The notes under the pieces: generated by a model
Database searches by the model: none
Told to the model about the DNA's origin: nothing
The model's input: only the letters and a program-made list of their open reading frames with translations
Part shown: one piece after another, positions 3,196-53,779 of the stretch
How positions within the stretch are numbered: position 1 is the first letter of the stretch
Layout: the number at the start of each line of letters is the position of its first letter
Position numbers and translations under genes: made by a program
Source: a virus
Taxonomy: Duplodnaviria; Heunggongvirae; Uroviricota; Caudoviricetes
DNA length: 64,000 nt
IMG/VR virus record: IMGVR_UViG_3300017650_000009
Strand: one strand, 5' to 3'

Positions 3196-3238
3196 TAATC
3201 CCGGTAAACATAAATAGTACAAAATCCGGGAGACCAGC

Positions 3239-3535: not shown

Positions 3536-3802
3536 ATGAAAAACATGCGTAGCATTATTTCGGAACTGGATCGTTTAGTCCCTGAGCGTGACAAACATCA
3601 AATTATTGAAGCCAGAGCCACTAACGTGATCGCCAGTTGCATTAATGTCATGCAGCTGATAAATGAAACTTTCTCAGATGCGGAAGCCGAAGAGTTAAAC
3701 AAACGTTTACTCGGAGCAATAAAAAATAAAGATGCTTCGAAGTTTAACCGCAAAATTACTGAGATGAAGAAACTTTCAAAGAACGCAAAGCATGACAAAT
3801 AA
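3536..3802 (+). CDS. hypothetical protein
   Basis: ORF track. Confidence 0.3.
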   Translation: MKNMRSIISELDRLVPERDKHQIIEARATNVIASCINVMQLINETFSDAEAEELNKRLLGAIKNKDASKFNRKITEMKKLSKNAKHDK

Positions 3803-4511
3803 CCTGCACAAACACCTAGAGATAATGAGAGAAGCTTCACTCCGCGACATTGCTGCGGCAGCTGGAGACGCTGTGGGTGCTATGGCGGGTAATGATAAGT
3901 CCAAGGGCCGTCAAGATGCCCGTAAACTTAAATCATACTTGACAAAGCAATATAATAAATGGCTTGGTCAAACAGGTAATGAAATTGACGAAGAGTCTCT
4001 AATGACTTTTCTTTCAGCAAAGATTGGATTCACACCCGCAAATATTCGAAAGATTTTCGATAAAGCAAAAGTCAGTGATCCAACACAAATGGAATCCCTA
4101 CAAGAAGATATTAATAAAACAGACGTCGATCGTGTAATGCAGATCGCCGCTGAATTTGCCTTTGCTCATAATTTGGTTAAGCCAACAAATCCGGAGGAAA
4201 CTCCAATGGCTAGCCGAGAAGAACCTCGCCGTGATGGTCGCCGAAGAAATCGCGATGAGGGTTCACCAGATGATATTATCAATAGCTTGCGTAACCGAGT
4301 AGAGAGTAACAAGAATGCCTACAACGTTGACAAGACAGAGCTTGTTGATGCACTGAAACAAACGGGTCTAACCCGAGAATACCTTGGCGACCTCACCGAT
4401 ATAATGGCCAAGGTAAAAGATTACAAAGACATCCAAAAAATGCCCGATCGCAACGAGATTATGAATCAGCTTGCTAAGGTTGGATTTGCTTTCTTCAAGT
4501 CAACACGTTAA
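3792..4511 (+). CDS. hypothetical protein
   Basis: ORF track; ATGA-type overlap with upstream ORF. Confidence 0.4.
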   Translation: MTNNLHKHLEIMREASLRDIAAAAGDAVGAMAGNDKSKGRQDARKLKSYLTKQYNKWLGQTGNEIDEESLMTFLSAKIGFTPANIRKIFDKAKVSDPTQMESLQEDINKTDVDRVMQIAAEFAFAHNLVKPTNPEETPMASREEPRRDGRRRNRDEGSPDDIINSLRNRVESNKNAYNVDKTELVDALKQTGLTREYLGDLTDIMAKVKDYKDIQKMPDRNEIMNQLAKVGFAFFKSTR

Positions 4512-4519
4512 TTGACTTT

Positions 4520-5776
4520 GTGCTCATATCCTGCTTAATTGGGGATATGAGCATCAAACATTTTCACGACCTACCAATCAAAACAATTCGCGCAGCTTTT
4601 GCTGAGTCTTCTACTTGGCTAATTAATGAGAAATATGATGGTAGCTATATTCGTGCAGGTTTGGATGCACTGGGACAGTTTTATACCGCACGTAAAGGGT
4701 TGAAGCCAGTTTACTCATATAGGGACTGGGATCCAAAACCATGGGCCGATGCATTTAGATCCGCACATATTGCGTTAGAGTCGTTTGTTGATCGACTCGA
4801 CAGTATGGGGGTAATCAAACCGGGCGACCATATGGATTTTGAGATTATATATGGTAGGCTTCCCAATACTATTGCGTATCCGCATTATTTGGCAAACACT
4901 CTCATCATGTTTGCCACAAATAATAATGAAATCAAAAACCACACCACAACGCTCATGCATAATGATTTGTTTCTACTTGAACATCCGGGGCTATCCTCGG
5001 AAGGTTCAGTTAAAGTCATGTATGATGAATGGACTACTCATCACGGTAGAAGAAAAACTCGTATAAGAACCAATCGAACATGGACTTTTCTTTTTGCGTA
5101 TGATGTGAAATTCAAACATGATATGATTACCGATGAAGCCATGATTAGTATTCCGGCGTTTTTAGATCGTCATATCAAGTTCATGGGTCAGACCCTAACA
5201 ATCGAACAATTACTTGAGACTAAACTCACAAAGAAGCCAGAATGGCTCATTATTAGTGATAGTGGTTGGAAAACACACAAGCCATACTTGCTTGAACAGA
5301 TTAAGCTTGAACGCTCCAAATATCGTGCTGAATTTGCAATGCTTTGTAACCTCAACACAAGAGTTCTAAAACAGTATTGGGCTAGTTTGCATTCGTGGCG
5401 GCAACGCAAATCATCCGAAATTGAAGGAATTGTTGTCCACTTCAAAGTTGATGGTAACCCCATTATAGCCAAGTTCGTAGACACCGAAACATTCGGGCCA
5501 GCCAATAATTTCTCACATATCGTTCGTTATTGGTTACAGGGTGGGCGCCGTCCAGAACGCCCAAGCTTCCTTTCGCGGACAAAAGATTGGCCAGTTGAAA
5601 AACGTTTGGAACGTTTGGAAGTCCTACGTACCCGTTTTATTGATAATCGTCTAAAACTCACAAAAACGTTTCGTGAAACCGAAGTATCATATTATAATAA
5701 TCAGTTGTTCGAGCGCACTGCTTTGTTATTTGCCGAAATAAAGGAAAAGTTGGAAAATGGGTGGACTGGCGTTTAA
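4520..5776 (+). CDS. ATP-dependent nucleic-acid ligase (covalent nucleotidyltransferase superfamily; motif I resembles T4 Rnl1)
   Basis: Motif I EKYDGS (KxDG; T4 Rnl1 has KEDGS); motif IV-like EGIVVHFK; size 418 aa. Confidence 0.55.
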   Translation: MLISCLIGDMSIKHFHDLPIKTIRAAFAESSTWLINEKYDGSYIRAGLDALGQFYTARKGLKPVYSYRDWDPKPWADAFRSAHIALESFVDRLDSMGVIKPGDHMDFEIIYGRLPNTIAYPHYLANTLIMFATNNNEIKNHTTTLMHNDLFLLEHPGLSSEGSVKVMYDEWTTHHGRRKTRIRTNRTWTFLFAYDVKFKHDMITDEAMISIPAFLDRHIKFMGQTLTIEQLLETKLTKKPEWLIISDSGWKTHKPYLLEQIKLERSKYRAEFAMLCNLNTRVLKQYWASLHSWRQRKSSEIEGIVVHFKVDGNPIIAKFVDTETFGPANNFSHIVRYWLQGGRRPERPSFLSRTKDWPVEKRLERLEVLRTRFIDNRLKLTKTFRETEVSYYNNQLFERTALLFAEIKEKLENGWTGV

Positions 5777-20308: not shown

Positions 20309-20725
20309 TCAAACACCGAAAAACTTACGAACCTCTCTCCAGCTATCAAAAACATGTTCCACACGTCCTTTGGTGAAATCAGTAATCATAGCTTTGCCCG
20401 AATGAAAGTTCTTGAATCCAGAGGATGGACAAATCCAATATTGAACATCGCCCGTTTTAAGATCACAAATGCTGAACGAGTCATACAGATGACCATCAAC
20501 GGGGCAGTTATTTTTGAAGAACACATAACTTTGTTCCGAATCAATAAGCTTTGACTCCGATAGCTGAACCACCTTACGGCCTAAGAATCGTGTCTTGTTG
20601 CGCAGCGAGGTATCACGGCAGAACCAGTCGTACCATCCTGCATCACATTGGACACTCCGGCTTGGATCTTCGAACTCCCCTGCTTCGAATCGCTTAACGA
20701 ATTCGTTGATAGAAATGTTACCCAT
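20309..20725 (-). CDS. hypothetical protein (C-terminus RKFFGV, possibly a distant FKLxFG-family member)
   Basis: ORF track; C-terminal motif. Confidence 0.4.
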   Translation of the reverse strand: MGNISINEFVKRFEAGEFEDPSRSVQCDAGWYDWFCRDTSLRNKTRFLGRKVVQLSESKLIDSEQSYVFFKNNCPVDGHLYDSFSICDLKTGDVQYWICPSSGFKNFHSGKAMITDFTKGRVEHVFDSWREVRKFFGV

Positions 20726-21687: not shown

Positions 21688-22068
21688 CTAACCCATTGAT
21701 AATTTAATAATCATTACGATTTGTTCGTCATTGAGTACCGAAGTATCCAAATGTTCAAACTCCGTAACAATTCGTTCAAACTTTGCGAAATCAATTCCAT
21801 AGGGAGTTGCCCTATTGCTGATATAATGACGCATTGCAGCCAGTGATATTTCTTCAGGATCCCACTGATCTTCCAAGCCGTAGCATGAACAATGTGAGCC
21901 CCGAAACAAATAGAACCGACCATCCCGAATGAAAATCCCACCAGCAGTGCCTTCATAGGATTCACATTCATATTGCGCATAAAGGAAATGAACTCCCTTT
22001 TGTTCCTCGAGAGGAACGTTGAAGTTTTCAAATACTTCATTTGCATTTGTGAATAAGCCGTAGAACAT
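21688..22068 (-). CDS. hypothetical protein (C-terminus IIKLSMG, FKLxFG-like)
   Basis: ORF track. Confidence 0.4.
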   Translation of the reverse strand: MFYGLFTNANEVFENFNVPLEEQKGVHFLYAQYECESYEGTAGGIFIRDGRFYLFRGSHCSCYGLEDQWDPEEISLAAMRHYISNRATPYGIDFAKFERIVTEFEHLDTSVLNDEQIVMIIKLSMG

Positions 22069-24457: not shown

Positions 24458-24904
24458 ATGAACCCATTTATGCTTCCCGAGAAAGAACGTATGCTTTCAT
24501 GGAGAGAACTTCGTAACCAAATCCAGGCAGCAAACGATTTAGACACAAAGCTTAACTTACTCCTACAGTGGTGGTCTAAAGCCCCAATATGCCGTTATAG
24601 TATTGATGCTTTTGATTCTAGTGAATGGCCAACACCTTGGGAACTACTTAACGAGAATATGTTTTGTACCAGTGCTATCTCCTATATGATGGCGCAAACA
24701 CTTGCGCTAACCGGATTTGAACCTAGTCGCTTAAAATTGTCATTTATTAAGGGACAAGATGATGAACGTCTAGTACTCGTAGTAGATGAGGAGATCACAC
24801 TAAACTATTCATTCGGAGAGGTTTTTGCGTGGTCTGAAATCCTTAAGGAAGTCAGAGTGAAACATACATTCATGCTAATGGGTGAAAAATACCAAATAAT
24901 TTAA
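24458..24904 (+). CDS. hypothetical protein (possible fiber assembly factor)
   Basis: Position only. Confidence 0.3.
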   Translation: MNPFMLPEKERMLSWRELRNQIQAANDLDTKLNLLLQWWSKAPICRYSIDAFDSSEWPTPWELLNENMFCTSAISYMMAQTLALTGFEPSRLKLSFIKGQDDERLVLVVDEEITLNYSFGEVFAWSEILKEVRVKHTFMLMGEKYQII

Positions 24905-24907
24905 TAG

Positions 24908-24932
24908 AAGCCGCTCGAAAGGGCGGCTTTTT
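24908..24932. terminator. bidirectional intrinsic terminator
   Basis: aagccgctc-gaaa-gggcggctt + ttt. Confidence 0.6.
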
Positions 24933-25152
24933 AACCAAAGACAAGTTTGAAATGTAAAGCAACTTGGGGATCTTTAAACCAGAAATTTTTCCCCACCAAC
25001 GTCCAATTCGGCTCCAATATATCCAACTCGGATATACACCAACGCATTGCCTCTTCTTTCTTTTTCGATCTGACACTCACACAGGGCCATTCATCAAGTA
25101 TTTCATCAACTAATTCCCCAGGTGCTTTATCCAACTGAACGCGAGCCATCAA
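24931..25152 (-). CDS. FKLxFG-family small protein (tandem array member 1)
   Basis: C-terminus VALHFKLVFG. Confidence 0.5.
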   Translation of the reverse strand: MMARVQLDKAPGELVDEILDEWPCVSVRSKKKEEAMRWCISELDILEPNWTLVGKNFWFKDPQVALHFKLVFG

Positions 25153-25367
25153 CCAAACCTCAGTTTGAATTCAAAGGCAATCCTAGCATCTTCGATGAAG
25201 ACAACATCATCAAGTTTGACCCAGCGGAAGTCATTGGCCTTACACTCAGCTATTGCCCAATTCAAACCATCAACAGACTTACGAACAGTCGGGATATGAA
25301 TCTTATGCCATCGAACATATTCTTGTGTTTCTTCATAAGTCATCAAATACGATAATAACCTTGGCAT
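25149..25367 (-). CDS. FKLxFG-family small protein (array member 2)
   Basis: C-terminus IAFEFKLRFG. Confidence 0.5.
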   Translation of the reverse strand: MPRLLSYLMTYEETQEYVRWHKIHIPTVRKSVDGLNWAIAECKANDFRWVKLDDVVFIEDARIAFEFKLRFG

Positions 25368-25600
25368 TAAGCAAACCTCAATTTGAATTCAACAGCAATA
25401 ATGGGATCTTCAATCCAATATGTTCCAAAGAATACTGCCCAATTATAATGTTCGCCACGTTCGTTAAACCAATCAAGAGCTTCACGTGGGTCATGAACTA
25501 GTAGATCAGTCGAAACTATATACCAACTGCTAATGACTTCCATCGGCCGTTCATCAGAACCAATAGTGTTAGTTCTATATGATAATTGAACTTGGGGCAT
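25367..25600 (-). CDS. FKLxFG-family small protein (array member 3)
   Basis: C-terminus IAVEFKLRFA. Confidence 0.5.
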   Translation of the reverse strand: MPQVQLSYRTNTIGSDERPMEVISSWYIVSTDLLVHDPREALDWFNERGEHYNWAVFFGTYWIEDPIIAVEFKLRFA

Positions 25601-25603
25601 ATC

Positions 25604-25816
25604 TCATCCAAATAACATTTTGAACATTATTGCGGCCTGCATCTCTTCAAAGAAAAACTCAACTACATGTGAGTGTCTGACATGATAACGACAATCGAAT
25701 TGCTTTAAAAATGCTGAATATTCCTTCACAGTTATTTCATGCGAATTCAAAACAACGGATGGCCAAATCAACTCATACTCTTTGTCGTAGAATTCCGTTA
25801 TATCCACGCGAATCAT
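25604..25816 (-). CDS. FKLxFG-family small protein (array member 4)
   Basis: C-terminus AAIMFKMLFG. Confidence 0.5.
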   Translation of the reverse strand: MIRVDITEFYDKEYELIWPSVVLNSHEITVKEYSAFLKQFDCRYHVRHSHVVEFFFEEMQAAIMFKMLFG

Positions 25817-26034
25817 GTGAACATCATTTTGAATTGAACTGCGATATCCTTTCGCTCAAAGTAATATGCAGGTTGTGAACCACGGGAAATGAAAAACTTA
25901 CCTATATCACGATTGAAAAAATCGTAGTAGGATTGATCAATTGGCATTCCACTTTGAACATCAATTTTGTGCCAAGACGTTCCGTAGTTGGCCGCTTTAA
26001 AATCATCCCAAAGAACTTGATCCGATTTCATCAT
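25813..26034 (-). CDS. FKLxFG-family small protein (array member 5)
   Basis: C-terminus IAVQFKMMFT. Confidence 0.5.
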   Translation of the reverse strand: MMKSDQVLWDDFKAANYGTSWHKIDVQSGMPIDQSYYDFFNRDIGKFFISRGSQPAYYFERKDIAVQFKMMFT

Positions 26035-26417
26035 TAACCCCCAAATGATAACCTATACGTGAGTGCATCACGTTTGCGCTCGAATGCCAAGAAGGTTCCA
26101 TAGATAGTGAACATGAATCGTCCCTCACATGATTGAAAGAACTCATATAGCTCTGCTATTTTTTGACTTGAGCTATCAGCCACATACGGAACACGAAACA
26201 CAGTCCAACGCAAATACAATTTCTTGTCAGCATATTCGGTTCTCGGTACATGAGTCGGCAAAGCCTCGATTGCACGAACAATTCGATCCCATTCATCGAC
26301 CGTCATCGTGTAATCCGAAACTTCCGGTTGCATGAAAGCCAATCCATTAATGTGCGAATACGCATTTGTCAAAAACATGGTCATGCCACACGTTAACAGG
26401 TTTTGGTACAAAGTCAA
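26034..26417 (-). CDS. FKLxFG-family protein (array member 6; TTG start or internal ATG)
   Basis: C-terminus ALTYRLSFGG. Confidence 0.4.
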   Translation of the reverse strand: MTLYQNLLTCGMTMFLTNAYSHINGLAFMQPEVSDYTMTVDEWDRIVRAIEALPTHVPRTEYADKKLYLRWTVFRVPYVADSSSQKIAELYEFFQSCEGRFMFTIYGTFLAFERKRDALTYRLSFGG

Positions 26418-26420
26418 ACA

Positions 26421-26448
26421 AAAACCCGACCTAAGCCGGGTTTAAGGG
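26421..26448 (-). terminator. intrinsic terminator of the tmRNA transcript
   Basis: Minus strand: aaacccggcttaggtcgggttttt. Confidence 0.6.
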
Positions 26449-26850
26449 ACGTTCTGTTTCCAAGTGTATCGCCCAAAACTCATCTGAGATTAAGCAGCGA
26501 GTGCCATCTCAGCAGAAACATTATCGTTTGCTGCATTTATAAAATCGAACATATATTAGTGTTTTGATTTCTAGCCTATCTCACCGAGGTAATCAAGGCG
26601 TCTGATTGGCTTTCCAGTTACCCAGTCCACACTCAAAACATTAATCGGTCGTATCTTACCGGTAACCTACTCGTACCTTTCGCTGCATAGTCGAAGCCTA
26701 TATCGCCCCCATCATAAACACAAAGCACTCTCCAAAAGCCGATCACTCGTCAATCTTCACAGATTGTCACCTTGTGTTTATGGTGGAGGCGCGGGGAACT
26801 GCCCCCCGGTCCTACACAACTATTGAGTTTGTATCAACAGTTACATGGGT
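26421..26850 (-). ncRNA. ssrA: circularly permuted (two-piece) tmRNA gene. In transcript order: acceptor piece (about 26843-26781, ending with T-arm + CGCCUCC-ACCA); intervening segment (26780-26711); coding piece (26710 to about 26449) with 5' GGGGGCG and tag ORF 26534-26490
   Basis: 5' GGGGGCGAUAUAGGCUUCGACUAUGCAGCGAAAGG (compare E. coli GGGGCUGAUUCUGGAUUCGACGGGAUUUGCGAAACC); acceptor stem GGGGGCG/CGCCUCC with G3.U70; T-arm CGGGG-GGCAGUU-CCCCG then ACCA; ...UAUAAAU GCA GCA AAC GAU AAU GUU UCU GCU GAG AUG GCA CUC GCU GCU UAA, peptide AANDNVSAEMALAA. Confidence 0.75.
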
Positions 26851-26880
26851 ATTTAAGCAGGATCGTCTGTTTTTGTCAAC
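26850..26880 (-). promoter_or_regulatory. sigma70-like promoter for tmRNA (TTGACA-17-TTAAAT)
   Basis: Minus strand: gTTGACAaaaacagacgatcctgcTTAAATAcc. Confidence 0.4.
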
Positions 26881-27042
26881 CACTTATCTCGAATATACTG
26901 GACAAATGTGCAGGAGGCTGAACCCCCATATAGGCAAACGATTGCGACTTGTAAATCCCACCAAAGGATCGCAGACATTCCGACGCCGAAACACACATAC
27001 CCGGCTACCTCTAGACAACGGAGAGCTTTTTCAAAAATTACT

Positions 27043-27492
27043 TTAATCACAACTGGAACTACCTGAATCACTCGAGCTATCAGATGAACTATAACTGGAA
27101 CCGGAATCGTATTGGTTATACGAGCCATAGTTTCCAAACGAATCACCAAAAGATTCGCCGTACGGCTGTGGTGTTTCTTGTACCGTGTTGACGCTGTTAA
27201 GCAAATCCACAGCAAGCCAGTTAGATTGTGTAGCCGAATAGTTTGTATCGTAAGTTGCAGTCATTGAGCGTCTACGGGCTTCTCTGATAGCAGTCCGCTT
27301 TCGATTTCCTCGTTCGGTTTCTTCGTCTTGGAGTCTTGCTTGTCGTTGCAATATAAAAGCACAAAGCACAAATAAAGCACCACCAAACATCAAACTGATA
27401 TTAAAGGTTTGAGCTCCGACTTCGGTAAAATTAGCCACACCATATGCTGACGTGAATACACCAACAAATAACATTAAAAGTCTGAATATCAT
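27043..27492 (-). CDS. membrane protein with Ser/Asp-rich low-complexity C-terminus
   Basis: Two TM helices; YGSYNQYDSGSSYSSSDSSSDSGSSS. Confidence 0.4.
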   Translation of the reverse strand: MIFRLLMLFVGVFTSAYGVANFTEVGAQTFNISLMFGGALFVLCAFILQRQARLQDEETERGNRKRTAIREARRRSMTATYDTNYSATQSNWLAVDLLNSVNTVQETPQPYGESFGDSFGNYGSYNQYDSGSSYSSSDSSSDSGSSSCD

Positions 27493-30485: not shown

Positions 30486-31115
30486 GTGTTTGCATTTCTT
30501 ATCGCTGACGAATATCTCGTCTTCAGTTGCGCACTAGCCGTGTCTTTGGCTTTTATCGCGCTCGAGTTAGCTGGAACATTTATCGGCTTCTCATTTTTCT
30601 CAGATACCCATGCGGATCATGATTTCGACCTATCCGGTGATAGCTTCTTCGCCAGCATTAGTGCGGGTATGCGTTGGATGGGATTTGGTAAAGTGCCACT
30701 CCTTGCACATTTAATCTTGCTTGCGGGATTGTTTGGTCTTATAGGGATGGTTCTACTCCATATTATCTATGGAGCAACTGGATTATATTTGAGTAACTGG
30801 GCTGCGGTGCCAATTGCTCTTATTGGAACAGTTTTTCTTTCAAATCGTTTTACCGCACTTGTGGTTAAAATCATCCCCACGGATGAAACCAACGCAATCA
30901 GTGTATCGGAACTAGTTGGTTATGAAGCAACTATTAGTGTGGGTAAGGCAACCCATACGATGCCGGCTCCTGCCAACACCGTTGACAAATACGGTACACA
31001 ACATAATTTCATGGTCTGCGCACTTGATGCAGGCACTGAACTAAACGAACGCACAAAGGTACGCCTTGTCAGTCTTACTGATAATGGTTATTTTTATGCA
31101 ACACCTTTGAATTAA
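30486..31115 (+). CDS. NfeD-like membrane protein (partner of SPFH proteins)
   Basis: N-terminal TM helices + C-terminal OB-like beta domain; immediately upstream of flotillin; GTG start after SD aaggag. Confidence 0.5.
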   Translation: MFAFLIADEYLVFSCALAVSLAFIALELAGTFIGFSFFSDTHADHDFDLSGDSFFASISAGMRWMGFGKVPLLAHLILLAGLFGLIGMVLLHIIYGATGLYLSNWAAVPIALIGTVFLSNRFTALVVKIIPTDETNAISVSELVGYEATISVGKATHTMPAPANTVDKYGTQHNFMVCALDAGTELNERTKVRLVSLTDNGYFYATPLN

Positions 31116-31133
31116 CAGAAGGATCTGCCTTTA

Positions 31134-32888
31134 ATGGAAAATATCATCTTTATGGCAATTGTTGCTCTAGTAGCAATTCTAGTCGTTGGCGTTTTTGGTT
31201 TTATCGTTGCTCGGCTTTATAAGCGCGCTTCGAAGGAAACAGCTTTTGTACGTACTGGTGCTGGTGGTCAGAAAGTCGTCAAGGACGGCGGTGCCCTCAT
31301 TATTCCGGTTCTGCATGATACACTTGATATCAATATGCAGACACTCAAGCTGGAAGTTTCTCGTACTGGCCAAGACGCACTTATTACGCATGATCGTATG
31401 CGTACGGATGTTACCGCAACATTCTTCGTTCGTGTCAAGCCGGATAATGATGCAATTGCACAGGCCGCACAGACCCTTGGTCGCCGGACTCAGAACCCAG
31501 ACCTTCTCAAGGCTGTTATTGAAGATAAGTTCATCGATGCTTTGCGTTCGGTTGCTTCTTCGATGGAACTGAAGGACTTGCATGAAAAGCGTTCGGACTT
31601 CGTGCAGAAGGTTAAGACCACTGTTGAAGAAGATCTGAAGACTAATGGTCTCGAACTTGAATCGGTCTCTTTGACTCGTTTGGATCAGACGGATCAGAAG
31701 TTCTTGAATCCAAACAATGCGTTCGATGCTGAAGGTCTCACCAATCTTGCAAAGATCACGCAGGAAAAGGCTCGCGAACGTAACGAAATCGAGCAGACCG
31801 CTCGCGTTGCTATTGAGAAGCGCAACTTCGAAGCGAACCAGGAATCGCTCGCGATCCGCCAGTCTGATGAGTTCGCCCGTCTTGATCAGGAACGTCAGGT
31901 TGAAACTCGCAAGGCCGAGCAGGAAGCTCAGCTTGCCCAGCAGCGCGCCGATCGCAAGCGTGAAGCCGATGTTGCGGCAATCGAAGCTGAAAAGCAAACT
32001 GAACTTGCTCGTACAACGTCAAACCAGGAAACTGCATTGGCTCGCACCGAAGCAAATAAGCGTCAGAAGGAAGCTGAAATTACCGCAAACCAGCAGCTTC
32101 GTATTGCTGAGCAGAACCAACAGATTGCTTTGAACGCTAAGTCTGAGGAAGAATCCAAGTCTCGTGCTATCGCGGATACTGAACGTGCAAATGCTGTTGC
32201 GGCTGCAGAATCGGTTAAGACTGCAGAAGCTGTCGCAACGGCGGAACGTTTGAAGCGCGTTGCGATCATCGAAGCCGAACAGGAAGCTGGCCGCAAGGCT
32301 ACCGAAATTACGGTTCAGGCAAAGGCTGAATTCGAAGCTTCGGATCTTCGTACAAAGGCACGTCTCAAGGACGCCGAAGCACGTGAGCGTGAGCTTACTG
32401 TTGAAGCTGAAGGTAAGCTCAAGATCAACGAAGCTGAAAACTCCTTGAGCCCTGAACAGATTGCACTTCGTCTTCGTACAACTGTTGTGCAGGCACTTCC
32501 TGGTATTCTCGAGCAGATGGTTGCTCCAATGAAGGCAGTCAAGGACGCACGTATCGTTACGATCAACGGTACGGGTGTTGGTGGTGCGGTCGCAGGTGGC
32601 ACTACTGGTTCGAATACTACTTCGGTTCCAGAGCAGCTTACCAATTCGTTGCTCAACTACCGTTCACAGGCCCCACTTGCTGATGCTCTTGGTAAGCTTG
32701 TTGGTATGAACCTCAATGGTTCGCTCAACGATATCATCCCTGATGATCTTCTAAGCGGTGAAGATGGTTTGCTTGCTCCGGTAGCGGCTGTGGCTCAGGT
32801 TGCTGACACAAAGACCAATACCGTACAGAAGGAAGACCAGGAACTGAAGAATATTCAGCACTTGGCTGGTATCGACACTAAGAAGTAA
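31134..32888 (+). CDS. flotillin-like SPFH/band-7 protein (FloT/YqiK-like)
   Basis: N-terminal TM, SPFH core (YKRASKETAFVRTGAGGQKVV...), long Ala/Glu-rich coiled coil with EA repeats. Confidence 0.75.
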   Translation: MENIIFMAIVALVAILVVGVFGFIVARLYKRASKETAFVRTGAGGQKVVKDGGALIIPVLHDTLDINMQTLKLEVSRTGQDALITHDRMRTDVTATFFVRVKPDNDAIAQAAQTLGRRTQNPDLLKAVIEDKFIDALRSVASSMELKDLHEKRSDFVQKVKTTVEEDLKTNGLELESVSLTRLDQTDQKFLNPNNAFDAEGLTNLAKITQEKARERNEIEQTARVAIEKRNFEANQESLAIRQSDEFARLDQERQVETRKAEQEAQLAQQRADRKREADVAAIEAEKQTELARTTSNQETALARTEANKRQKEAEITANQQLRIAEQNQQIALNAKSEEESKSRAIADTERANAVAAAESVKTAEAVATAERLKRVAIIEAEQEAGRKATEITVQAKAEFEASDLRTKARLKDAEARERELTVEAEGKLKINEAENSLSPEQIALRLRTTVVQALPGILEQMVAPMKAVKDARIVTINGTGVGGAVAGGTTGSNTTSVPEQLTNSLLNYRSQAPLADALGKLVGMNLNGSLNDIIPDDLLSGEDGLLAPVAAVAQVADTKTNTVQKEDQELKNIQHLAGIDTKK

Positions 32889-32903
32889 TTCTTAGTTTTA
32901 CGG

Positions 32904-32930
32904 AAAAGGGGACTTCGGTCCCCTTTTTGT
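32904..32930 (+). terminator. rho-independent terminator
   Basis: aaggggac-ttcg-gtcccctt + tttg. Confidence 0.6.
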
Positions 32931-32961
32931 TTGACTTTTTACCAAAACAAAGCTAAAAGGG

Positions 32962-33690
32962 ATGAAATCGAAGGAGATACCTGTGGGTTATATTAAGCAA
33001 AAAGGATTAAAAATGAACCAAGCCATGAACATCATTTATAGCTTGGTTGCCGGCTTTAGTGTCGGGGTATCAATCTTCTTCGGTGTGTTTCTTACATTCG
33101 GTGTGGGCATTGGCCCCTTTATGATTGCAGCTATGGGCGGTGCAATCGGTATGATTCTCACCACTGCTTATGTTTGTGATAAACTCCATAACTTGCAATG
33201 GAATAAAGAACGTAAAGAAAAAGATCTCGCACTAACGTACCAGGAGTTCAATGGACTCGAAGGTCTTTCGGGTGTGGATGTGGAAGCATTCCGAAACACG
33301 ATTCTAGAAGCTCGCAAAAAGCAATCAAAAATCCAATCCATGTATGTGCATTTGCATTTGCAAAAGGATGCCAAAATCATTCTAGCAGCATCAGCTATTG
33401 CAATTTTCATGGGAGAAATTCTAGCGTATGTGAAGAAAGAACCACAGAACTATCGTGCTGTTCACAAATGGCTTGATGTATATGCGGATCAAACAATTAA
33501 CATTTTGGAACAATATGCGGATATTCACGTAGATGCGCGTGATAAGGTTCGTGACAAATTCACCGATACCATTGTGCTGGTTAAAGATAACTTGCAATCG
33601 ACTATGGAATCGCTTACAGATAACACGATTGACAATTTACAAATTGATCTGGAACTTCTTCAGGATCAAATGAAACAGTACACGCGATAA
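32962..33690 (+). CDS. membrane protein (2 TM) with cytoplasmic helical domain
   Basis: Hydrophobic segments near residues 20-70. Confidence 0.4.
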   Translation: MKSKEIPVGYIKQKGLKMNQAMNIIYSLVAGFSVGVSIFFGVFLTFGVGIGPFMIAAMGGAIGMILTTAYVCDKLHNLQWNKERKEKDLALTYQEFNGLEGLSGVDVEAFRNTILEARKKQSKIQSMYVHLHLQKDAKIILAASAIAIFMGEILAYVKKEPQNYRAVHKWLDVYADQTINILEQYADIHVDARDKVRDKFTDTIVLVKDNLQSTMESLTDNTIDNLQIDLELLQDQMKQYTR

Positions 33691-33700
33691 GGAGCACGAA

Positions 33701-34789
33701 ATGAAAGTAACCAAAATCAAAGACACTGAGCTGGATTTGCTACCGATCACAAGTGATCCCAATGGTATCGATTTATCGAAGGTTCCAGCAATCCGTGATG
33801 GTCTTGATATTACGAAAACCAACGATATTATTGGTTTTGGTTCCGGTGCTCAGAAGAAGGTTACCGACATCAGCCGCAAAATGCTTGAAGGCGTGAAGTC
33901 CAAGGATACTGGCGTTGTCGGTGGGCTGCTCGTCGATATGGTTACATCTATGCGTGGCCTTGATTTCGACAAAGTCAAGCCTGGATCAAAGGTTGGATTC
34001 CTCGGCAAGCTTTTGGGTCGTTTGACTCCAGTGGCCAAGTTTATTCAGCAGTACGAGGGTATCTCTTCACACATTTCAGTTGTGGTTGCTGATCTTGAAA
34101 CCAACAAAGTCGCCCTTATGCGCGACGTGAAGGTTCTTGATCGTCTTTATGCGACGACACTTACGTATTTCCATGAACTTGCCGCCTACATTGAAGCGGG
34201 GACACAAAAGCTTGAACAGCTTGATAAAACGGAAATCCCAGCCCTGAAAGCTATAGCTGAAAAGTCCGGGGATATGCTGGATGCACAGAAAGTTCAGGAC
34301 CTTGTTCATGCACGTGATATGCTTGACCGAAAGGTGCACGACCTAAAGCTAACACGCCAAGTCGTCATGCAAAGCCTACCAAGTATTCGCATGGTTCAGC
34401 AGAACGATACTGATTTGATTGAAAAGATCAATTCACAAATCACCAACACCATTCCGGCATGGGAACAGCAATTGGCCCTTGCTGTTGCTATGTGGCGTTC
34501 AGCTGATGCGACAAAAACAACTCGTGCGGTTTCGGATTATTCCAATGAATTGATCAAGCAAAATGCAAAAATGCTGCGCCAGTCAAATGCGGAAGCACGT
34601 ACGGAAATCGAACGTGGCATCTATGATGTTGAAGCAATCAAGGCAGCAAATGAAGAATTGATTGCAGCCATTGGTGAATCCATTGCTATCGCTAATGCAG
34701 GCAAAGAAAAGCGCTTGCAAGCATCAGCAGAACTCATCGAGTGTGAGAATAAGCTTCGTGATGTCTTAGCGAGCGCTTCTACTAATTAA
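33701..34789 (+). CDS. TelA/KlaB-like toxic-anion-resistance family protein (tentative)
   Basis: 362 aa, helical; conserved-looking N-terminal region GFGSGAQKKV...; size and context (with SPFH/NfeD) like Bacillus YceH. Confidence 0.45.
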   Translation: MKVTKIKDTELDLLPITSDPNGIDLSKVPAIRDGLDITKTNDIIGFGSGAQKKVTDISRKMLEGVKSKDTGVVGGLLVDMVTSMRGLDFDKVKPGSKVGFLGKLLGRLTPVAKFIQQYEGISSHISVVVADLETNKVALMRDVKVLDRLYATTLTYFHELAAYIEAGTQKLEQLDKTEIPALKAIAEKSGDMLDAQKVQDLVHARDMLDRKVHDLKLTRQVVMQSLPSIRMVQQNDTDLIEKINSQITNTIPAWEQQLALAVAMWRSADATKTTRAVSDYSNELIKQNAKMLRQSNAEARTEIERGIYDVEAIKAANEELIAAIGESIAIANAGKEKRLQASAELIECENKLRDVLASASTN

Positions 34790-43432: not shown

Positions 43433-43539
43433 GTTTTTTGATTACTCCAAGGAAGCGCTTTTTCTTCCTATTTATGTTGTTTTGGACTTGACATTTTTTG
43501 CTTTCCTGTTACGTTTGTAGAAACAATGGAGAAGATCGT

Positions 43540-45132
43540 ATGTGGACAACAGACCTTAAACAGATTCACAAATTGTTCGACGATGCAGGATTTGAGATCC
43601 GGATCGTTGGTGGTGCTGTCCGCGATCATCTTTTGGGTCTTGAGCCCAACGACATCGATCTTTGCACTGATGCAACTCCAGATGAAATGATTACACTGGC
43701 CGAAACAAACAGTATCAAAGTTATCCCAACTGGTCTACAGCATGGTACGGTTACATTTGTAATCAATGGCGAACCCTATGAGATCACAACTTTGCGAATC
43801 GACGTTGAAACAGATGGTCGTCACGCAGAAGTTGCGTTCACTCGTAGCTTTGAAGAAGATGCTTTGCGCCGGGATTTCACGTTCAACGCTATGAGTTATG
43901 ATATTCATGGTGTTGTGCATGATTACTTCGATGGTCAAGTCGATCTGAAACGCAATGTTGTTCGATTCGTCGGAGATGCCGAAGCACGTATCCGTGAGGA
44001 TTACCTACGTGTATTGAGGTGGTTCCGGTTTTACTCGCGTATGGGTTCGAGTGAACGAACTATGGAAGACGTTGATCTTCTTCGTTTGTTTGGTGAAGAT
44101 TGGATTCAATCGGGTATGGATAAACTCAGTGGTGAGCGCATATGGTCCGAACTGAAAAAGATTTTATCAACCACAAACATGCGACAGGCCGCAATCGATT
44201 TGATTCAAACAGGAATGCTCGAAACAGTCCTGGGTCTTAGTATGACTCAATCCGAACGTGATATGTTCGTTACGCCGTCTTACGAATCATACTCGGTGAT
44301 TTGGAGTATAGAGGAGATTCTGAAATCCGATTTTGGTCATTTCCCACAATTTGTGGAACTTGCTCCAATTACAGTCATTGCACGATTTCTTGCTTCGTTC
44401 ACACCCGAAGAAGCAAACGCGGTAATTGATCGTTTGCGTATGTCTGCATCGGAAGCCAAAGCAATGCGCGAAATGCGCGATTACATGTTGATTGAACTTA
44501 CCGCGGGAAGTGAAACTGCTCGTCTCGATCTCATTTCCGGATTGACACGTACTTCACTTACATATTGGGTTCACTACGCGAGCTCCAAAGGCGTTGATAT
44601 GCATTTGGCTTTGTTTGCTGCGCTAACTTCACCAAATATGTTTCAGCCACGCGATGTTAGTGAAATGATCCGCTCAGTGTTTAAGCCAAACGGCGAAGTC
44701 GAGATGTCGGAAATTGAACCATTTACAATAACGGGCAAGGATCTGATTGAGCTCGGTTTGAAACCTGGTCCAATGTTCTCCAAGATCATTGAGATGGCAC
44801 GATGGAAATGGTACTCAAGCTCATGTAGTATGGACCGTGGACGGCAGCGTACTTGGGTTTCCAAACTGATCGCGGATGCACCCGAGCCGCATGTGTTGGT
44901 CAAACACCTCTATAGTTGTTTCCAAAGTGAACTCGATTTCAATAAGGGAATGGATCATTATGATATCCAACTTCATACCATCGAATGGGCAACTAAGCTA
45001 CCAAAGGGGTTTCATGCAGTTATCGAGGATCGCAAATCCCGTGATGATTGTCGCATGTTTGTATTGTGTCCGACTAAAGCTGCGGCGGTTACGCTCAAAC
45101 TAGAGGACGAATATATGCATGACGCAAAGTAA
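43540..45132 (+). CDS. cca: CCA-adding tRNA nucleotidyltransferase (class II Pol-beta NTase) with C-terminal extension
   Basis: RIVGGAVRDHLLGLEPNDIDLCTDATP head motif; SD ggagaag + ATG 43540 (track ORF starts earlier at 43498). Confidence 0.75.
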   Translation: MWTTDLKQIHKLFDDAGFEIRIVGGAVRDHLLGLEPNDIDLCTDATPDEMITLAETNSIKVIPTGLQHGTVTFVINGEPYEITTLRIDVETDGRHAEVAFTRSFEEDALRRDFTFNAMSYDIHGVVHDYFDGQVDLKRNVVRFVGDAEARIREDYLRVLRWFRFYSRMGSSERTMEDVDLLRLFGEDWIQSGMDKLSGERIWSELKKILSTTNMRQAAIDLIQTGMLETVLGLSMTQSERDMFVTPSYESYSVIWSIEEILKSDFGHFPQFVELAPITVIARFLASFTPEEANAVIDRLRMSASEAKAMREMRDYMLIELTAGSETARLDLISGLTRTSLTYWVHYASSKGVDMHLALFAALTSPNMFQPRDVSEMIRSVFKPNGEVEMSEIEPFTITGKDLIELGLKPGPMFSKIIEMARWKWYSSSCSMDRGRQRTWVSKLIADAPEPHVLVKHLYSCFQSELDFNKGMDHYDIQLHTIEWATKLPKGFHAVIEDRKSRDDCRMFVLCPTKAAAVTLKLEDEYMHDAK

Positions 45133-45323: not shown

Positions 45324-45749
45324 TTGATAAGTTACTTGCAATTGCTTTACGACTGGAATTTGGAGATGAAATTCGTTTCACAAGGACCGTATAATAGCGT
45401 CCATTTTTCTGCAGAACGATCACCGCAATATTATGATGCAAAAAATTTGCATATAGTGGTGTCTTGTTTCGAAGAAGAAGAAAATAAACAACCTAATTTG
45501 AATCGAGACAAGTGTTTCACCTATCTTGCTCGTAGTATCAATGATATGCAGGAAGAATTGCTTTCAAGCGATTTGAGAGATGTTCTAGATCATAAACATG
45601 GTAAATCCATACCGCATCCATACTCGATCGAGCATGAAGCTTATCGAAATAGGGATATATATTTGGCTAAAACCGTTTTGAGCATTGTTACTCGAATCAT
45701 CATTCATGATCCTCTTTTAATGGTACATCTTAAACTCATATATGGTTGA
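45324..45749 (+). CDS. FKLxFG-family protein (exact start uncertain)
   Basis: C-terminus LMVHLKLIYG. Confidence 0.35.
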   Translation: MISYLQLLYDWNLEMKFVSQGPYNSVHFSAERSPQYYDAKNLHIVVSCFEEEENKQPNLNRDKCFTYLARSINDMQEELLSSDLRDVLDHKHGKSIPHPYSIEHEAYRNRDIYLAKTVLSIVTRIIIHDPLLMVHLKLIYG

Positions 45750-45779: not shown

Positions 45780-46310
45780 ATGGAACAGACATCTTTTTAT
45801 CATCCGCGCTTGAACGCGCATAAAGCCATCGGCGTAGACATTGATTCTACACTGATCGAGGGTCCTTGCAGCTTTTACCTTCAGCGGTGGGTCCAACAAT
45901 ATCACAAAGATATTGAGTTGCACTTGGTCACATTCCGTGTTGAGGATGACTTCGACGCAATTGAGCGTGACATCGGTACATATGGGATGCAACTCGATAT
46001 GTTTCATGGCGTTCATGGCATTCCGCTTGATGTGGCTAATGATTTCTACAAGCTCACAGCTAAAGTCGGCATGAAGGGTCAGGTTAACGAAGCAAAGTGG
46101 AAACGCACACTTGCTTATCACAACACGAGTGAGGAGCAATATGAATCCACATCCACTATGGTCAAAAAGTGGAAAGGGCTCAAATGCCGAGAGCTTGGGC
46201 TTACTGCGCTCATCGATGATCTCGAAGATATGGTTGTTCCAGGTTGCCTCGAACACGGCATTGAATGGATTAATGCCCTAACCCTGACCAAGGACTATTA
46301 TGGAAAATAG
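45780..46310 (+). CDS. HAD-superfamily phosphatase-like protein
   Basis: Motif I DIDSTL (DxDxT) near N-terminus. Confidence 0.45.
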   Translation: MEQTSFYHPRLNAHKAIGVDIDSTLIEGPCSFYLQRWVQQYHKDIELHLVTFRVEDDFDAIERDIGTYGMQLDMFHGVHGIPLDVANDFYKLTAKVGMKGQVNEAKWKRTLAYHNTSEEQYESTSTMVKKWKGLKCRELGLTALIDDLEDMVVPGCLEHGIEWINALTLTKDYYGK

Positions 46311-46548
46311 AATTATCCCCGTAGATGAACTACCTGAGGATCTTGTAATCGAGGATTATGGCATCGTTGACATTCGGTGCTACGGGGGTTCACCTGTTGA
46401 GATAAACGGTCCCATTTATGAGTTGATTCCTGAAGTTACGGAATGGCTCAAAGAGAATTGCCCAAATAGCTTTTTTCATGAGGAAGAGTTTGAGCTGCGC
46501 TTGCATTCGGATCATGATGCTATGATGTTTAAGTTGAGGTGGCTATGA
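46300..46548 (+). CDS. FKLxFG-family small protein
   Basis: C-terminus AMMFKLRWL. Confidence 0.45.
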   Translation: MENRIIPVDELPEDLVIEDYGIVDIRCYGGSPVEINGPIYELIPEVTEWLKENCPNSFFHEEEFELRLHSDHDAMMFKLRWL

Positions 46549-46844
46549 GCCTAATTGATATTGATAACTCGGATATCCTAAACAAGTTGTTTGTGATTCC
46601 GTGGGACGAGTTTAGTTTCTTCGGAACACCAGATGATGTTCCATTTATTGATCATGTTATGGCTAGACTTGAACTTGTCGAGTATCAATCTGATTTTAAA
46701 CAATGGCTTGAAGAAAACAATATGGTAGGAATAAAGCGTAGGTTTTATCTTGAAGAAGTATCGCCAAACAATTTCATGATTCATGTGGAGTTTGCATCGG
46801 ATTCAGAAGCAAACTCCATGCTGTTTAAGTTAACTTGGCTCTAA
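46539..46844 (+). CDS. FKLxFG-family small protein
   Basis: C-terminus SMLFKLTWL. Confidence 0.45.
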   Translation: MAMSLIDIDNSDILNKLFVIPWDEFSFFGTPDDVPFIDHVMARLELVEYQSDFKQWLEENNMVGIKRRFYLEEVSPNNFMIHVEFASDSEANSMLFKLTWL

Positions 46845-47159
46845 TTACTTGGGGCGGTAATCCGTTGGGAACATATCATCGGGATCCGTCCTGCAAAGCC
46901 CACACATTCCATCATGCTCATCACGTTCGGCTTCATCAACGATTTGTATTAAATCATAAACAAATATTGTGAATGCTTGGTTGATCGAAGTAGCAACTTG
47001 TGACGCAATAGCTTGGTTCATCATACGCATGGCGTTATCGATATCGTAGTTTCCACTAGAATACCCACCATTCATATAAGAGCTTGAATATGATTTACCC
47101 GCCAACATTCGAAGTCTGTTACGCATGACATCGGCATCAATTACTTTTTTCTTAGCCAT
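46845..47159 (-). CDS. hypothetical protein
   Basis: ORF track. Confidence 0.4.
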   Translation of the reverse strand: MAKKKVIDADVMRNRLRMLAGKSYSSSYMNGGYSSGNYDIDNAMRMMNQAIASQVATSINQAFTIFVYDLIQIVDEAERDEHDGMCGLCRTDPDDMFPTDYRPK

Positions 47160-47533
47160 AAAATCCAGGCTCCACCTTCATTAAGTTTTTTAATTTTACG
47201 AATTTTCGGATGAAGCGTTGCCCATGTCTCAAACTCTTGAGATATTTGTCCGCTCTTACCCGTAATATGTGTGATCTTCTTATAACCCAAAAGATCAGCT
47301 TGTTCAATATGTTGGAGAATCTCTGCATGTGCTTGCTGAAGAGTCATGTGATGCAAGTCAAGCTTGGGAGAGAAACTAATGTCGCGAACAGGCAACCGAC
47401 GCACACGATGCACGGGTGGATTTAGGTTTGGTGTTGAGAAACACGATGTACTTGACATCGCCTCGTCCCAAAGTGTCTGTTCCTCTTTTGTAAGTTTTCT
47501 CATTTCAATTTTGACTCTTAACCCTATTATCAC
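47141..47533 (-). CDS. Smr-domain protein
   Basis: KLDLHHMTLQQA ... KITHITGKSG resembles Smr LDLHG...HGKG. Confidence 0.5.
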   Translation of the reverse strand: MIIGLRVKIEMRKLTKEEQTLWDEAMSSTSCFSTPNLNPPVHRVRRLPVRDISFSPKLDLHHMTLQQAHAEILQHIEQADLLGYKKITHITGKSGQISQEFETWATLHPKIRKIKKLNEGGAWILWLRKK

Positions 47534-52784: not shown

Positions 52785-53011
52785 TATTGAGCCTTATTAT
52801 TTTTTATTTTTTAATTATGGGTTTTAACACCGAAACTATTTACAACATGAGCTTAAATCGGATAGCTTCTTGTTTTGTCTCAAATAACAAATAGAATCCA
52901 CCATCATCTATATACCAAGTAATTATTTTGGGCTCGATATTCAATTCAACACAAACTTCAAAAACTCTAGCTTCGTCATATTTGGTCAAATCCAAATAAA
53001 GCTTGTATCCT

Positions 53012-53263
53012 TTAGCCATTGAAGTTCAATCGGAACATCATTGCGTCTTGCTTCTTACTGAACCAACACTTGACCTCGTAATGCTTGAATGCACCGTATG
53101 AGTCTTCGAATTTGATAATCTCGTACCATACTGTACCGACGCAATACTGCTTGACCCAATCAACTAGTTCTTGTTCATCCCATGTTGAGTAATTCACACG
53201 ATTCACAAACTTGAATTTGGATTCCTTAGGAACTGATCCGCTAATACGAACTGCTTTACTCAT
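53012..53263 (-). CDS. FKLxFG-family small protein
   Basis: C-terminus AMMFRLNFNG. Confidence 0.45.
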   Translation of the reverse strand: MSKAVRISGSVPKESKFKFVNRVNYSTWDEQELVDWVKQYCVGTVWYEIIKFEDSYGAFKHYEVKCWFSKKQDAMMFRLNFNG

Positions 53264-53264
53264 G

Positions 53265-53738: not shown

Positions 53739-53749
53739 TTTGTCTCCTT

Positions 53750-53779
53750 AGGGGTATTTGACCCCTTGGGGTCAAATAC
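53750..53779. other. perfect 30-bp palindromic hairpin at intercistronic junction (no T-tract)
   Basis: ggggtatttgacccc-ttg-gggtcaaatacc; overlaps stop of topo subunit and precedes SD of next gene. Confidence 0.5.

Follow-up and report, generated by a model that had tools for sequence, protein, structure and literature searches.

Six paralogous small genes downstream of a phage tmRNA gene belong to an uncatalogued, phage-restricted protein family

The window analysed here is a stretch of 64,000 nucleotides from IMG/VR virus record IMGVR_UViG_3300017650_000009. Between positions 24931 and 26333 its minus strand carries a run of six tightly packed small ORFs, labelled F to A along that strand (Table 1). 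A sequence-only reading of this DNA had described six consecutive minus-strand ORFs with overlapping starts and stops and had compared them with arrays in T4-like phages. The ORFs are present as described, and their junctions, read from the sequence, are TGATG, TAATG, a 3-nt gap, ATGA and TAATG, that is, all overlapping or nearly touching. The phage itself is a jumbo Atu_ph07/Phosso-like rhizobiophage and not a classical T4-like phage. Judged by the junctions, the six genes apparently form a tightly packed, translationally coupled operon. The upstream limit of the array, previously drawn at 26417, is revised: gene F most likely starts at the ATG at 26333, as in public gene sets, and not at the TTG at 26417, a start that would make it extend into the neighbouring tmRNA gene.

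This tmRNA gene immediately precedes the array. Its tag is given by ARAGORN as AANDNVSAEMALAA, and the gene ends in a terminator-like hairpin (26443-26422). The same placement is found in four related jumbo rhizobiophages (this phage, L001, L003 and Phosso), and in all four the array is convergent with tail-collar fibre genes. At the other end of the array, a GC-rich hairpin is a possible bidirectional terminator, a weak assignment given that the consensus scan made no call there. The consensus promoter scan remained at background, with 7 sites against 8.4 expected.

Table 1. Family members and flanking features in the window, with E-values from profile searches.
Feature	Position	Strand	Leave-one-out HMM (E)	Outside HMM (E)	Description
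Array gene 1 (F)	26034..26333	-	0.72	2e-7 and 3e-7	99 aa; 'LYLRW' subtype; public gene call P0003 = 99 aa
Array gene 2 (E)	25813..26034	-	8e-5	3e-8	72-73 aa; tandem ATGs; 'SQPxYYFE' subtype
Array gene 3 (D)	25604..25816	-	2e-7	2e-8	70 aa
Array gene 4 (C)	25367..25600	-	5e-6	1e-7	77 aa; lineage-specific A-type duplicate; nearest relatives A and B
Array gene 5 (B)	25149..25367	-	4e-5	1e-9	72 aa; lineage-specific A-type duplicate; AF2-modelled copy
Array gene 6 (A)	24931..25149	-	9e-7	6e-12	72 aa; last gene of the array; AF2-modelled copy
Member G	46300..46548	+		3e-6 and 3e-12 (two HMMs)	82 aa; very acidic, net charge about -13
Member H	46545..46844	+		1e-3 and 8e-6 (two HMMs)	99 aa; adjoins G; public gene call P0025; G-H blastp E = 3.5e-4
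Member I	53012..53263	-		2e-4 and 3e-7 (two HMMs)	83 aa; between two topoisomerase II subunit genes; public gene call P0026
Probable member I2	52840..53019	-		0.01 and 9e-4 (two HMMs)	59 aa; C-terminal end ...FETKQEAIRFKLML
Phage tmRNA	26443..26917	-			Permuted, alphaproteobacterial-type; directly upstream of the array; Rfam RF01849 73 bits, RF04321 90 bits
GC-rich hairpin	24905..24930				GCCGC-N8-GCGGC, read from sequence; between the array end and a convergent 148-aa gene

All six array proteins share the C-terminal motif A-h-x-[FY]-[KR]-[LM]-x-F that the sequence-only reading had seen in them. The literal pattern A[LIVMAFT]x[FY][KR][LM]x[FW] matches the six-frame translation of the window eight times, always 1-2 residues from a stop codon and always in an ORF claimed for the family, compared with 0.1 on average, and never more than 2, in 500 residue shuffles. 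Profile searches separate the members from decoys over a much longer span. Leave-one-out HMMs recovered genes A-E at E = 2e-7 to 8e-5, with best decoys typically at 0.2-0.6 and one at 0.008; gene F failed in this design and was recovered by outside-only profiles. The outside-only HMM, built from 225 sequences of which none comes from this phage, matched nine members (A-I) at E = 3e-12 to 8e-6, with the best reversed decoy at 0.034 and the next ORF of the window at 0.33. Membership was assigned on an outside-only profile match spanning both the half that contains W17 and W37 and the terminal helix; such matches were found for A-F, G, H and I, and I2 scored 9e-4. Across the two designs members and decoys lie 4-10 orders of magnitude apart, and the alignments cover 50-70 residues, not 10. 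On these profile comparisons the six array genes are homologous, true paralogues of a single family, as had been proposed.

The same reading had counted at least 11 members genome-wide, a figure that the window does not sustain: it contains nine firm members (A-I) and one probable member (I2). The ORFs at 46300-46548 and 53012-53263 are confirmed by the outside-only HMM, as is that at 46539-46844 once its start is corrected to 46545. Five further ORFs, at 48031-48663, 45324-45749, 20309-20725, 21688-22068 and 49502-50044, were rejected as their HMM scores never exceed noise and they have no match to the outside-only profile. I2, missed earlier, is a probable extra member by its profile scores (best decoy 0.034). 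The dispersed copies are situated in replication and RNA-metabolism regions.

Members are found well beyond this genome. Among IMG/VR loci gathered by a back-translated motif scan, 78 loci contain 159 ORFs at E <= 0.01 compared with 0 reversed decoys; a larger HMM at E <= 0.001 yields 187 members in these loci, with arrays of 2-11 copies. An indexed protein search with a 103-sequence alignment added 169 metagenomic proteins, all of 72-102 aa and all without Pfam domains, and family proteins are roughly 75 residues long. An exhaustive HMMER search gave 22 hits, about 14 of them small proteins from outside this phage, and the indexed search, when given alignments of only six copies or 23 sequences, brought up little besides the proteins of this phage. 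When 34 proteins were joined into one query against 50,697 deposited phages, members came up only in Phosso and Atu_ph07; megablast with the array matched none of these records, and tblastn with one outside member found nothing. The Atu_ph07 members are gp255 and gp258. They flank gp256, published as a peptidyl-tRNA hydrolase, whose annotation was considered for the family and rejected, gp256 being a true PTH2 and a non-member. A motif scan of 596 Gb of cellular genomes yielded only 3 real members. By this distribution the family is large, phage-restricted and not peculiar to this genome. Clustering of neighbouring genes across loci revealed no consistent partner gene.

The sequence-only reading had not recognised the family, and curated libraries do not recognise it either. 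When 103 members were scanned singly against Pfam-A, PHROGs v4, NCBIfam 20 and PADLOC 2.0, no library family was matched by more than one member, and the window copies had no match. The only matches were singletons at E = 3e-4 to 1e-2: EbsA, TscA, DrmMII and three PHROGs. The TscA antitoxin (PF23767 / NF047365) was matched by one of the 103 members, at E = 0.0025 and 0.0055, and was dismissed because such a score is expected by chance over 103 queries; EbsA and DrmMII were likewise rejected as lone chance matches. No sequence similarity to the family was found among PDB chains, and NCBI cluster look-ups gave no informative names for members. On the strength of these searches the family is uncatalogued, with no member recognised by Pfam, PHROGs, NCBIfam, PADLOC or PDB.

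Conservation extends across a whole domain of about 55 aa. The signature reads W-x-[KR]-V-x-V, then W-C-x-E-N, then [FY]-x-F-E-N-x-x-D-A-x-x-F-K-L-x-[WF]-G, with the stop codon 0-2 residues beyond. The top positions are W17, W37, F58, A64, F67, L69 and W71, all hydrophobic; W17 and W37, the aromatics of strand 1 and helix 1, lie 40-55 residues upstream of the tail. The earlier description of everything outside the motif as highly diverged holds in part, except that these two residues of the N-terminal half are as conserved as the tail. Moderately conserved polar residues surround the last helix (E59, N60, D63, K68 and R70), and the conserved positions include no catalytic-type polar constellation, CxxC motif or transmembrane segment; CxxC occurs in 1 of 235 members. 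The pI of the family is bimodal, with 40% of members below 6 and 48% above 8, and most window copies are acidic (pI 4.3-6.7).

Two independent AF2 models, of moderate confidence (mean pLDDT 74) and built from shallow alignments of 10 and 25 sequences, predict the same beta-alpha-beta-beta-alpha topology for A and B, with a pLDDT of 74 for the gene B model and about 85 in the core of the gene A model. In both, the motif forms a helix at residues 61-71 with a local pLDDT of 78-87. The predicted fold recalls the two-layer alpha/beta sandwiches of ferredoxin-like, ACT and KH domains without their final strand, and the likeness is generic, the best Foldseek match in the PDB having E of about 1. Secondary structure and residue type suggest that the motif is buried. 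The best reading of the models is that the motif is the final amphipathic helix of a compact fold, where it packs against the sheet, and not a free signal peptide.

The array has diverged faster than its surroundings while remaining under constraint. Gene F has orthologues at 7301-7672 in L003 and in Phosso 478/479, gene E at 8001-8243 in L003 and in Phosso 476, and gene A at 8776-9012 in L003 and in Phosso 475; for gene D neither phage has a clear orthologue. Both phages keep the F, E and A types in the order seen here. Going by these orthologies, the three subtypes are ancient and their order is fixed among phages that share only about 50% identity in their flanking proteins. Lineage-specific duplicates exist on either side, A/B/C here and 478/479 in Phosso, and the array comprises six copies here, six in L003 and four in Phosso. 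Such a pattern suggests birth-and-death evolution by local duplication with conserved order. Identity of the array proteins to L003 and Phosso is 23-37% or undetectable, versus 38-66% for flanking genes. Relative to L001, the array has 9 nonsynonymous and 16 synonymous changes while five flanking genes have 0 and 49 (one-sided Fisher test, about 2e-5). The array pN/pS of about 0.14 indicates purifying selection, and all its reading frames are intact across the four phages. The genes had been called rapidly evolving, which is accurate in comparison with their flanks, but purifying selection and the kept order of three subtypes qualify that description.

The best explanation of the whole, held tentatively, is that a coupled operon encodes members of an uncatalogued single-domain family with a fixed core and a variable surface, which serve as diversified accessory binders. 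It joins the observed homology, distribution, gene organisation and selection to a fold and a motif burial taken from the models, and to a binding role that is conjectural. Each protein would be essentially one domain of about 55 residues with a ferredoxin-like layout minus the last strand, preceded by a variable, partly disordered N-terminal segment. The signature residues would form an aromatic and hydrophobic folding core that stays fixed, while surface charge, N-terminal segment and loops vary. Copies would be born and lost through local duplication; in this clade the old F, E and A types have retained their order behind the tmRNA gene. We infer that the proteins may act as non-enzymatic binding modules, each an accessory protein engaging a different host or phage partner. 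The phage-restricted distribution, copy-number turnover and relaxed constraint are features seen in the family. The polar residues clustered there, around the last helix, might together make up a functional surface common to all copies, and one shared partner would then be favoured over many.

Lineage-specific expansions of small domains are known in jumbo phages. For instance, a zinc-ribbon is present in roughly 35 copies in Bacillus phage G (Iyer et al. 2021, PMC7824862). The present family resembles such expansions: a very large phage genome holds many copies of one small domain, some in tandem and others dispersed, and an enzymatic signature is lacking. It differs from the zinc-ribbon case in its alpha/beta aromatic core without metal ligands and in its spread over many unrelated uncultivated phages instead of one lineage. 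In a term search of the survey the word 'tandem' was absent, and none of its four passages on Atu_ph07 deals with this family.

Variable ('hyperplastic') regions of T4-like phages contain small non-essential ORFs, several of which encode host-takeover or anti-defence proteins. The array shares with them genes of 60-100 codons with overlapping stops and starts, packed between conserved core genes, varying in presence and copy number among relatives and diverging faster than core genes. Unlike those regions, which mix unrelated ORFans, it reuses one homologous domain many times. Apart from the singletons above no member matches any PHROG, so T4 and most cultured phages would lack the family. As suggested earlier, the array may have a role in host takeover or anti-defence. 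An unlikely but more far-reaching version holds that the family is a phage-specific, non-enzymatic binding scaffold presenting hypervariable surfaces on an invariant aromatic core, whose paralogues neutralise different host factors of defence or translation quality control or co-assemble as a hetero-oligomer.

A distinctly unlikely alternative is that the proteins are RNA- or ribosome-associated factors for translation rescue and tRNA repair, acting with the phage tmRNA, PTH2, CCA-adding enzyme and Smr proteins. The four phages with the tmRNA arrangement form one clade with a common gene order and so provide a single observation. Near members in 53 other viral loci there is no tmRNA and almost no tRNA, and a role as tmRNA/SmpB trans-translation accessory factors was rejected on this ground, the tmRNA link being judged a clade-specific gene order. 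Recurrent neighbours are heterogeneous, including a CobS-like ATPase, ClpP, an exonuclease, a desaturase and DNA polymerase, and I and I2 sit between topoisomerase subunit genes. The mostly acidic window copies and the bimodal pI are likewise unlike a dedicated RNA binder.

It is improbable that the copies build one hetero-oligomeric assembly, in which the incomplete ferredoxin-like domains join through their edge strands to give a ring or filament, coupling sets the stoichiometry and a link to the neighbouring tail-fibre module might exist. Assembly of the paralogues into one complex would also be compatible with translational coupling and a fixed gene order; the start/stop overlaps, the subtype order kept across diverged phages, the missing fourth strand and the convergent tail-collar fibre genes all agree with it. 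However, most member groups in viral loci (78 of 107) consist of one gene only, copy number varies between close relatives, and copies are dispersed to other genomic regions. Neither gp255 nor gp258 is listed in the Atu_ph07 virion proteome (Supplementary Table S5, PMC6102473), a weak argument, since proteomics readily overlooks proteins of 8-12 kDa.

The sequence-only reading had suggested that the C-terminal peptide shared by these fast-evolving proteins could serve in docking, degradation or localisation, for example through ClpX, the sliding clamp or the ribosome. That otherwise unrelated proteins have only such a linear peptide in common is now very improbable. The motif is the most conserved stretch, it lies within six residues of the stop in 140 of the 159 viral members, and moderate conservation is seen at K68 and R70, which face outward on the helix. 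The extreme C-terminal position recalls degrons and docking peptides such as ssrA-type tags and clamp-binding motifs. Against this, W17 and W37 outrank every tail position in information, and profile similarity spans the domain. A degron or linear docking motif would be a disordered, accessible tail and the sole conserved element, whereas both models place the motif in a helix packed in the confident core, and its invariant residues (A, F, L and W/F) are hydrophobic, as expected if buried. No unstructured spacer precedes it, and there is no free tail because the protein ends 0-2 residues after it. The clamp-binding consensus is QL[SD]LF and that of ssrA ...LAA; the family motif differs from both. 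The notion that the copies are non-functional filler or decaying duplicates with the motif as a duplication relic, for which variable copy number, high divergence and the lack of a known domain or function might speak, is effectively refuted by the excess of synonymous changes, the intact reading frames and core residues conserved across hundreds of distant members.

In uncultivated large phages the family comprises several hundred proteins at the least, and up to 11 copies are adjacent. Its definition gives a name, and a domain to search with, to 'hypothetical proteins' of Phosso, of Atu_ph07 and of many jumbo phages known from metagenomes, and two cultured systems, Sinorhizobium meliloti with Phosso and Agrobacterium tumefaciens with Atu_ph07, give experimental access to it. 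Should the hypervariable scaffold prove real, it would be a widespread diversifying-binder system of large phages on Alphaproteobacteria and aquatic bacteria that all catalogues have missed. If the copies turn out to bind host factors in diversified ways, new inhibitors could be drawn from the arrays as a compact source; even if they are no more than ordinary accessory genes, the appealing but unsupported notion that they share a C-terminal signal peptide has been corrected.

The interval 24931-26417 holds six minus-strand open reading frames (ORFs) arranged head to tail from F, the first gene, to A, the last, as the sequence-only reading had described. Their junctions overlap or leave a 3-nt gap, the pattern of an operon with coupled translation. 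In public gene sets (P0003), F starts at ATG 26333 (99 aa) and not at TTG 26417, which would overlap the same-strand tmRNA gene. A terminator-like hairpin (26443-26422) lies at the tmRNA 3′ end, and a GC-rich hairpin lies 3′ of A. The window is part of a 434,884-bp contig from a jumbo phage that has Sinorhizobium phage Phosso and Agrobacterium phage Atu_ph07 as distant relatives.

Features of the window and related loci (L001, L003 and other L numbers, loci outside the window; Phosso, L082; Atu_ph07, L083); E values are from an HMM of 225 outside proteins
Feature	Locus	Position	Strand	E	Remark
F	window	26333 (start)	-	3e-7	F/E junction TAATG; F type (first): L003 7301-7672, Phosso 478/479
E	window		-	3e-8	E/D junction ATGA; E type: L003 8001-8243, Phosso 476
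D	window		-	2e-8	D/C junction 3-nt gap
C	window		-	1e-7	C/B junction TAATG
B	window		-	1e-9	B/A junction TGATG
A	window	24931 (end)	-	6e-12	A type (last): L003 8776-9012, Phosso 475
G	window	46300-46548		3e-12	dispersed
H	window	46545-46844		8e-6	dispersed
I	window	53012-53263		3e-7	dispersed
I2	window	52840-53019		9e-4	probable
tmRNA	window	about 26399-26917	-		ARAGORN and Rfam; also given as 26443-26917
tmRNA	L001	9135-9589
tmRNA	L003	5952-6648
tmRNA	Phosso	3944-4633
148-aa gene	window	24458-24904	+		follows tail-collar fibre gene
Serine-rich 149-aa membrane protein	window	27043-27492
PAAR-domain gene	L003	5203-5487
PAAR-domain gene	Phosso	3140-3424
YqiJ/NfeD-like to TelA-like cluster	window	30486-34789	+
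CCA-adding/poly(A) polymerase-like	window	43498-45132	+
Smr-domain	window	47141-47533	-
PTPS/QueD-like	window	47585-48034	+
GyrA-like to GyrB-like genes	window	51432-55652	-
PTH2 (gp256)	Atu_ph07	3672-4004
tRNA (CUA)	L007	7499-7573
tRNA (CUA)	L049	6252-6327
tRNA (CUA)	L062	7996-8072
Divergent cluster	L064	2151-2501	-
Divergent cluster	L069	4288-4695	+

In a six-frame translation, the literal C-terminal motif A[LIVMAFT]x[FY][KR][LM]x[FW] was found eight times, each copy 1-2 residues ahead of a stop; shuffles average 0.1 occurrences and never exceed 2. Among 677 stop-to-stop ORFs, leave-one-out HMMs recovered A-E (E = 2e-7 to 8e-5; reversed decoys typically 0.2-0.6, one at 0.008). F was missed by this search (E 0.72) and recovered by profiles built without any sequence from the window phage; an HMM of 13 outside proteins matched A-F at 2e-13 to 2e-7. 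Judged by the motif count and these profiles, the similarity exceeds chance. Because of their scores with the 225-protein HMM relative to noise (next ORF 0.33, best decoy 0.034), nine ORFs are firm members and one, I2, which was absent from the earlier list, is probable. The earlier count of at least 11 is not borne out: of its dispersed candidates, those at 46300, 46539 (H) and 53012 stand, and those at 48031, 45324, 20309, 21688 and 49502 never scored above noise.

This is a large family restricted to phages. When 1.84 billion representatives were searched exhaustively with HMMER, 22 matches came back at E <= 1e-3, some 14 of them small outside proteins (66-93 aa) and two of them repetitive proteins rejected as false positives. 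Scanning IMG/VR with back-translated F-E-N-x-x-D-A-x-x-F-K-L gave 78 loci, in which 159 ORFs match the family HMM (E <= 0.01; reversed decoys 0), the match ending within 6 residues of the stop in 140. With a larger HMM (E <= 0.001) the count rises to 187 members, of which 78 stand alone and the rest form tandem groups of 2-11. A 103-member alignment, used in an indexed search, contributed 169 more proteins (72-102 aa), all labelled 'hypothetical' and lacking Pfam domains. When bacterial and archaeal genomes (596 Gb) were scanned in the same way, only three ORFs at the 24 loci obtained proved to be real members (one in Microvirga, two in Novosphingobium), possibly located in prophages. The proposed search of other phages for the motif yielded relatives. 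Phosso and Atu_ph07 are the only deposited phage genomes with a match. The family, which the sequence-only reading did not recognise, is uncatalogued: Pfam, PHROGs, NCBIfam, PADLOC and PDB sequences gave no match beyond single chance ones. The best structural neighbours in BFVD, uncharacterised proteins of uncultured Caudovirales (identity up to 31%), are probably further members. Two neighbour-gene clusters below the HMM threshold, ending in ...DKEADWFTLRWL or ...NAIIAKLMWT, look like more divergent relatives, and the superfamily may be larger than the present count.

In all four relatives the order is tmRNA, array, convergent 148-aa gene and tail-collar fibre gene. L001 is near-identical to the window phage; L003 is diverged and has, besides its six members, an unrelated 158-aa insertion, and Phosso carries four members. 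Best-hit analysis distinguishes three old subtypes (F, E and A) whose order is retained in the window, L003 and Phosso. B and C have A as their nearest relative; in Phosso, genes 478 and 479 are each other's closest match. Both sets are lineage-specific duplications. Compared with L003 or Phosso, the proteins that flank the array in the window phage share 38-66% identity; those of the array share 23-37%, or escape detection by BLAST. Against L001, synonymous differences number 16 in the array and nonsynonymous ones 9 (pN/pS about 0.14), compared with 49 and 0 in five flanking genes. The array genes are real and constrained, yet clearly less so than their neighbours. The description 'rapidly evolving' holds in this relative sense; the mode is birth-and-death evolution, not unchecked rapid divergence.

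The tmRNA, conserved in four related jumbo phages, is permuted (two-piece) and of alphaproteobacterial type, with predicted tag AANDNVSAEMALAA, and points to an alphaproteobacterial host. The Phosso record does not annotate it; one is reported in the related phage AP-J-162 (PMC11242549). The dispersed copies fill spaces that separate core genes: of the three small genes between the GyrA-like and GyrB-like topoisomerase II subunit genes, two are I and I2, and G and H lie 3′ of the CCA-adding/poly(A) polymerase-like gene, near Smr and PTPS genes. In Atu_ph07, family members gp255 and gp258 flank Nudix hydrolase and PTH2 peptidyl-tRNA hydrolase genes, the stop of gp256 overlapping the start of gp255. 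Such neighbours, together with the tmRNA, suggest a link to translation rescue; however, the tmRNA cases form one syntenic clade, 53 other member-bearing loci have no tmRNA, and recurrent neighbours are heterogeneous across loci. An accessory role in RNA or ribosome rescue has a lower probability.

RefSeq lists Atu_ph07 gp256 as 'hypothetical', but Pfam clearly identifies it as a PTH2 peptidyl-tRNA hydrolase (E = 5.5e-16), in agreement with the original Atu_ph07 paper. The closely spaced CCA-adding, Smr and PTPS genes form, with the tmRNA, a notable RNA and translation-maintenance set. On three related IMG/VR contigs (159-436 kb), amber-suppressor-like tRNAs with anticodon CUA (ARAGORN label tRNA-Pyl) lie 2-3 kb from family members. 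Among the neighbours, conservation is highest for the 148-aa gene (64-66% identity with L003 and Phosso); it has no Pfam or PHROG match and may encode a fibre assembly factor. In L003 and Phosso, a PAAR-domain gene separates the DUF7217 and tmRNA genes; at that position the window has only the serine-rich membrane protein gene. A cluster of YqiJ/NfeD-like, flotillin/Band_7 (584 aa), Halogen_Hydrol-like and TelA-like genes, also in L003 and labelled from identical L001 genes by Pfam, is a membrane-microdomain/tellurite-resistance-type module carried by a phage.

Information in the profile logo peaks at W17, W37, F58, A64, F67, L69 and W71, with V20, C38, Y/F46, E59, N60, D63, K68 and R70 moderately conserved. 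AlphaFold2 models of A and B concur on a strand (21-25), a helix (28-41), a hairpin (49-52/55-58) and a second helix (61-71), with core pLDDT ~85 and a disordered N-terminus. Most likely, we infer, the family would be a conserved scaffold with variable surfaces, its members serving as accessory binding proteins. Assembly of the paralogues into hetero-oligomers is possible but less probable; gp255 and gp258 are absent from the published Atu_ph07 virion proteome, which weakly counts against a structural role. The C-terminal signal peptide proposed in the sequence-only reading is not supported: the motif region is helix 61-71 in both models, and W17 and W37 are among the logo maxima. A docking-peptide model has a lower probability. 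The earlier observation is largely confirmed and extended, and its interpretation holds in part: the family is real, unrecognised and relatively fast-evolving.

Large phages with expanded families of small proteins are already known (PMC7824862); the present sequence family is uncatalogued. So far there is no sign of an unusual mechanism. As putative binding scaffolds, these proteins represent a solid lead that is experimentally tractable through Phosso and S. meliloti, and through Atu_ph07 and A. tumefaciens.
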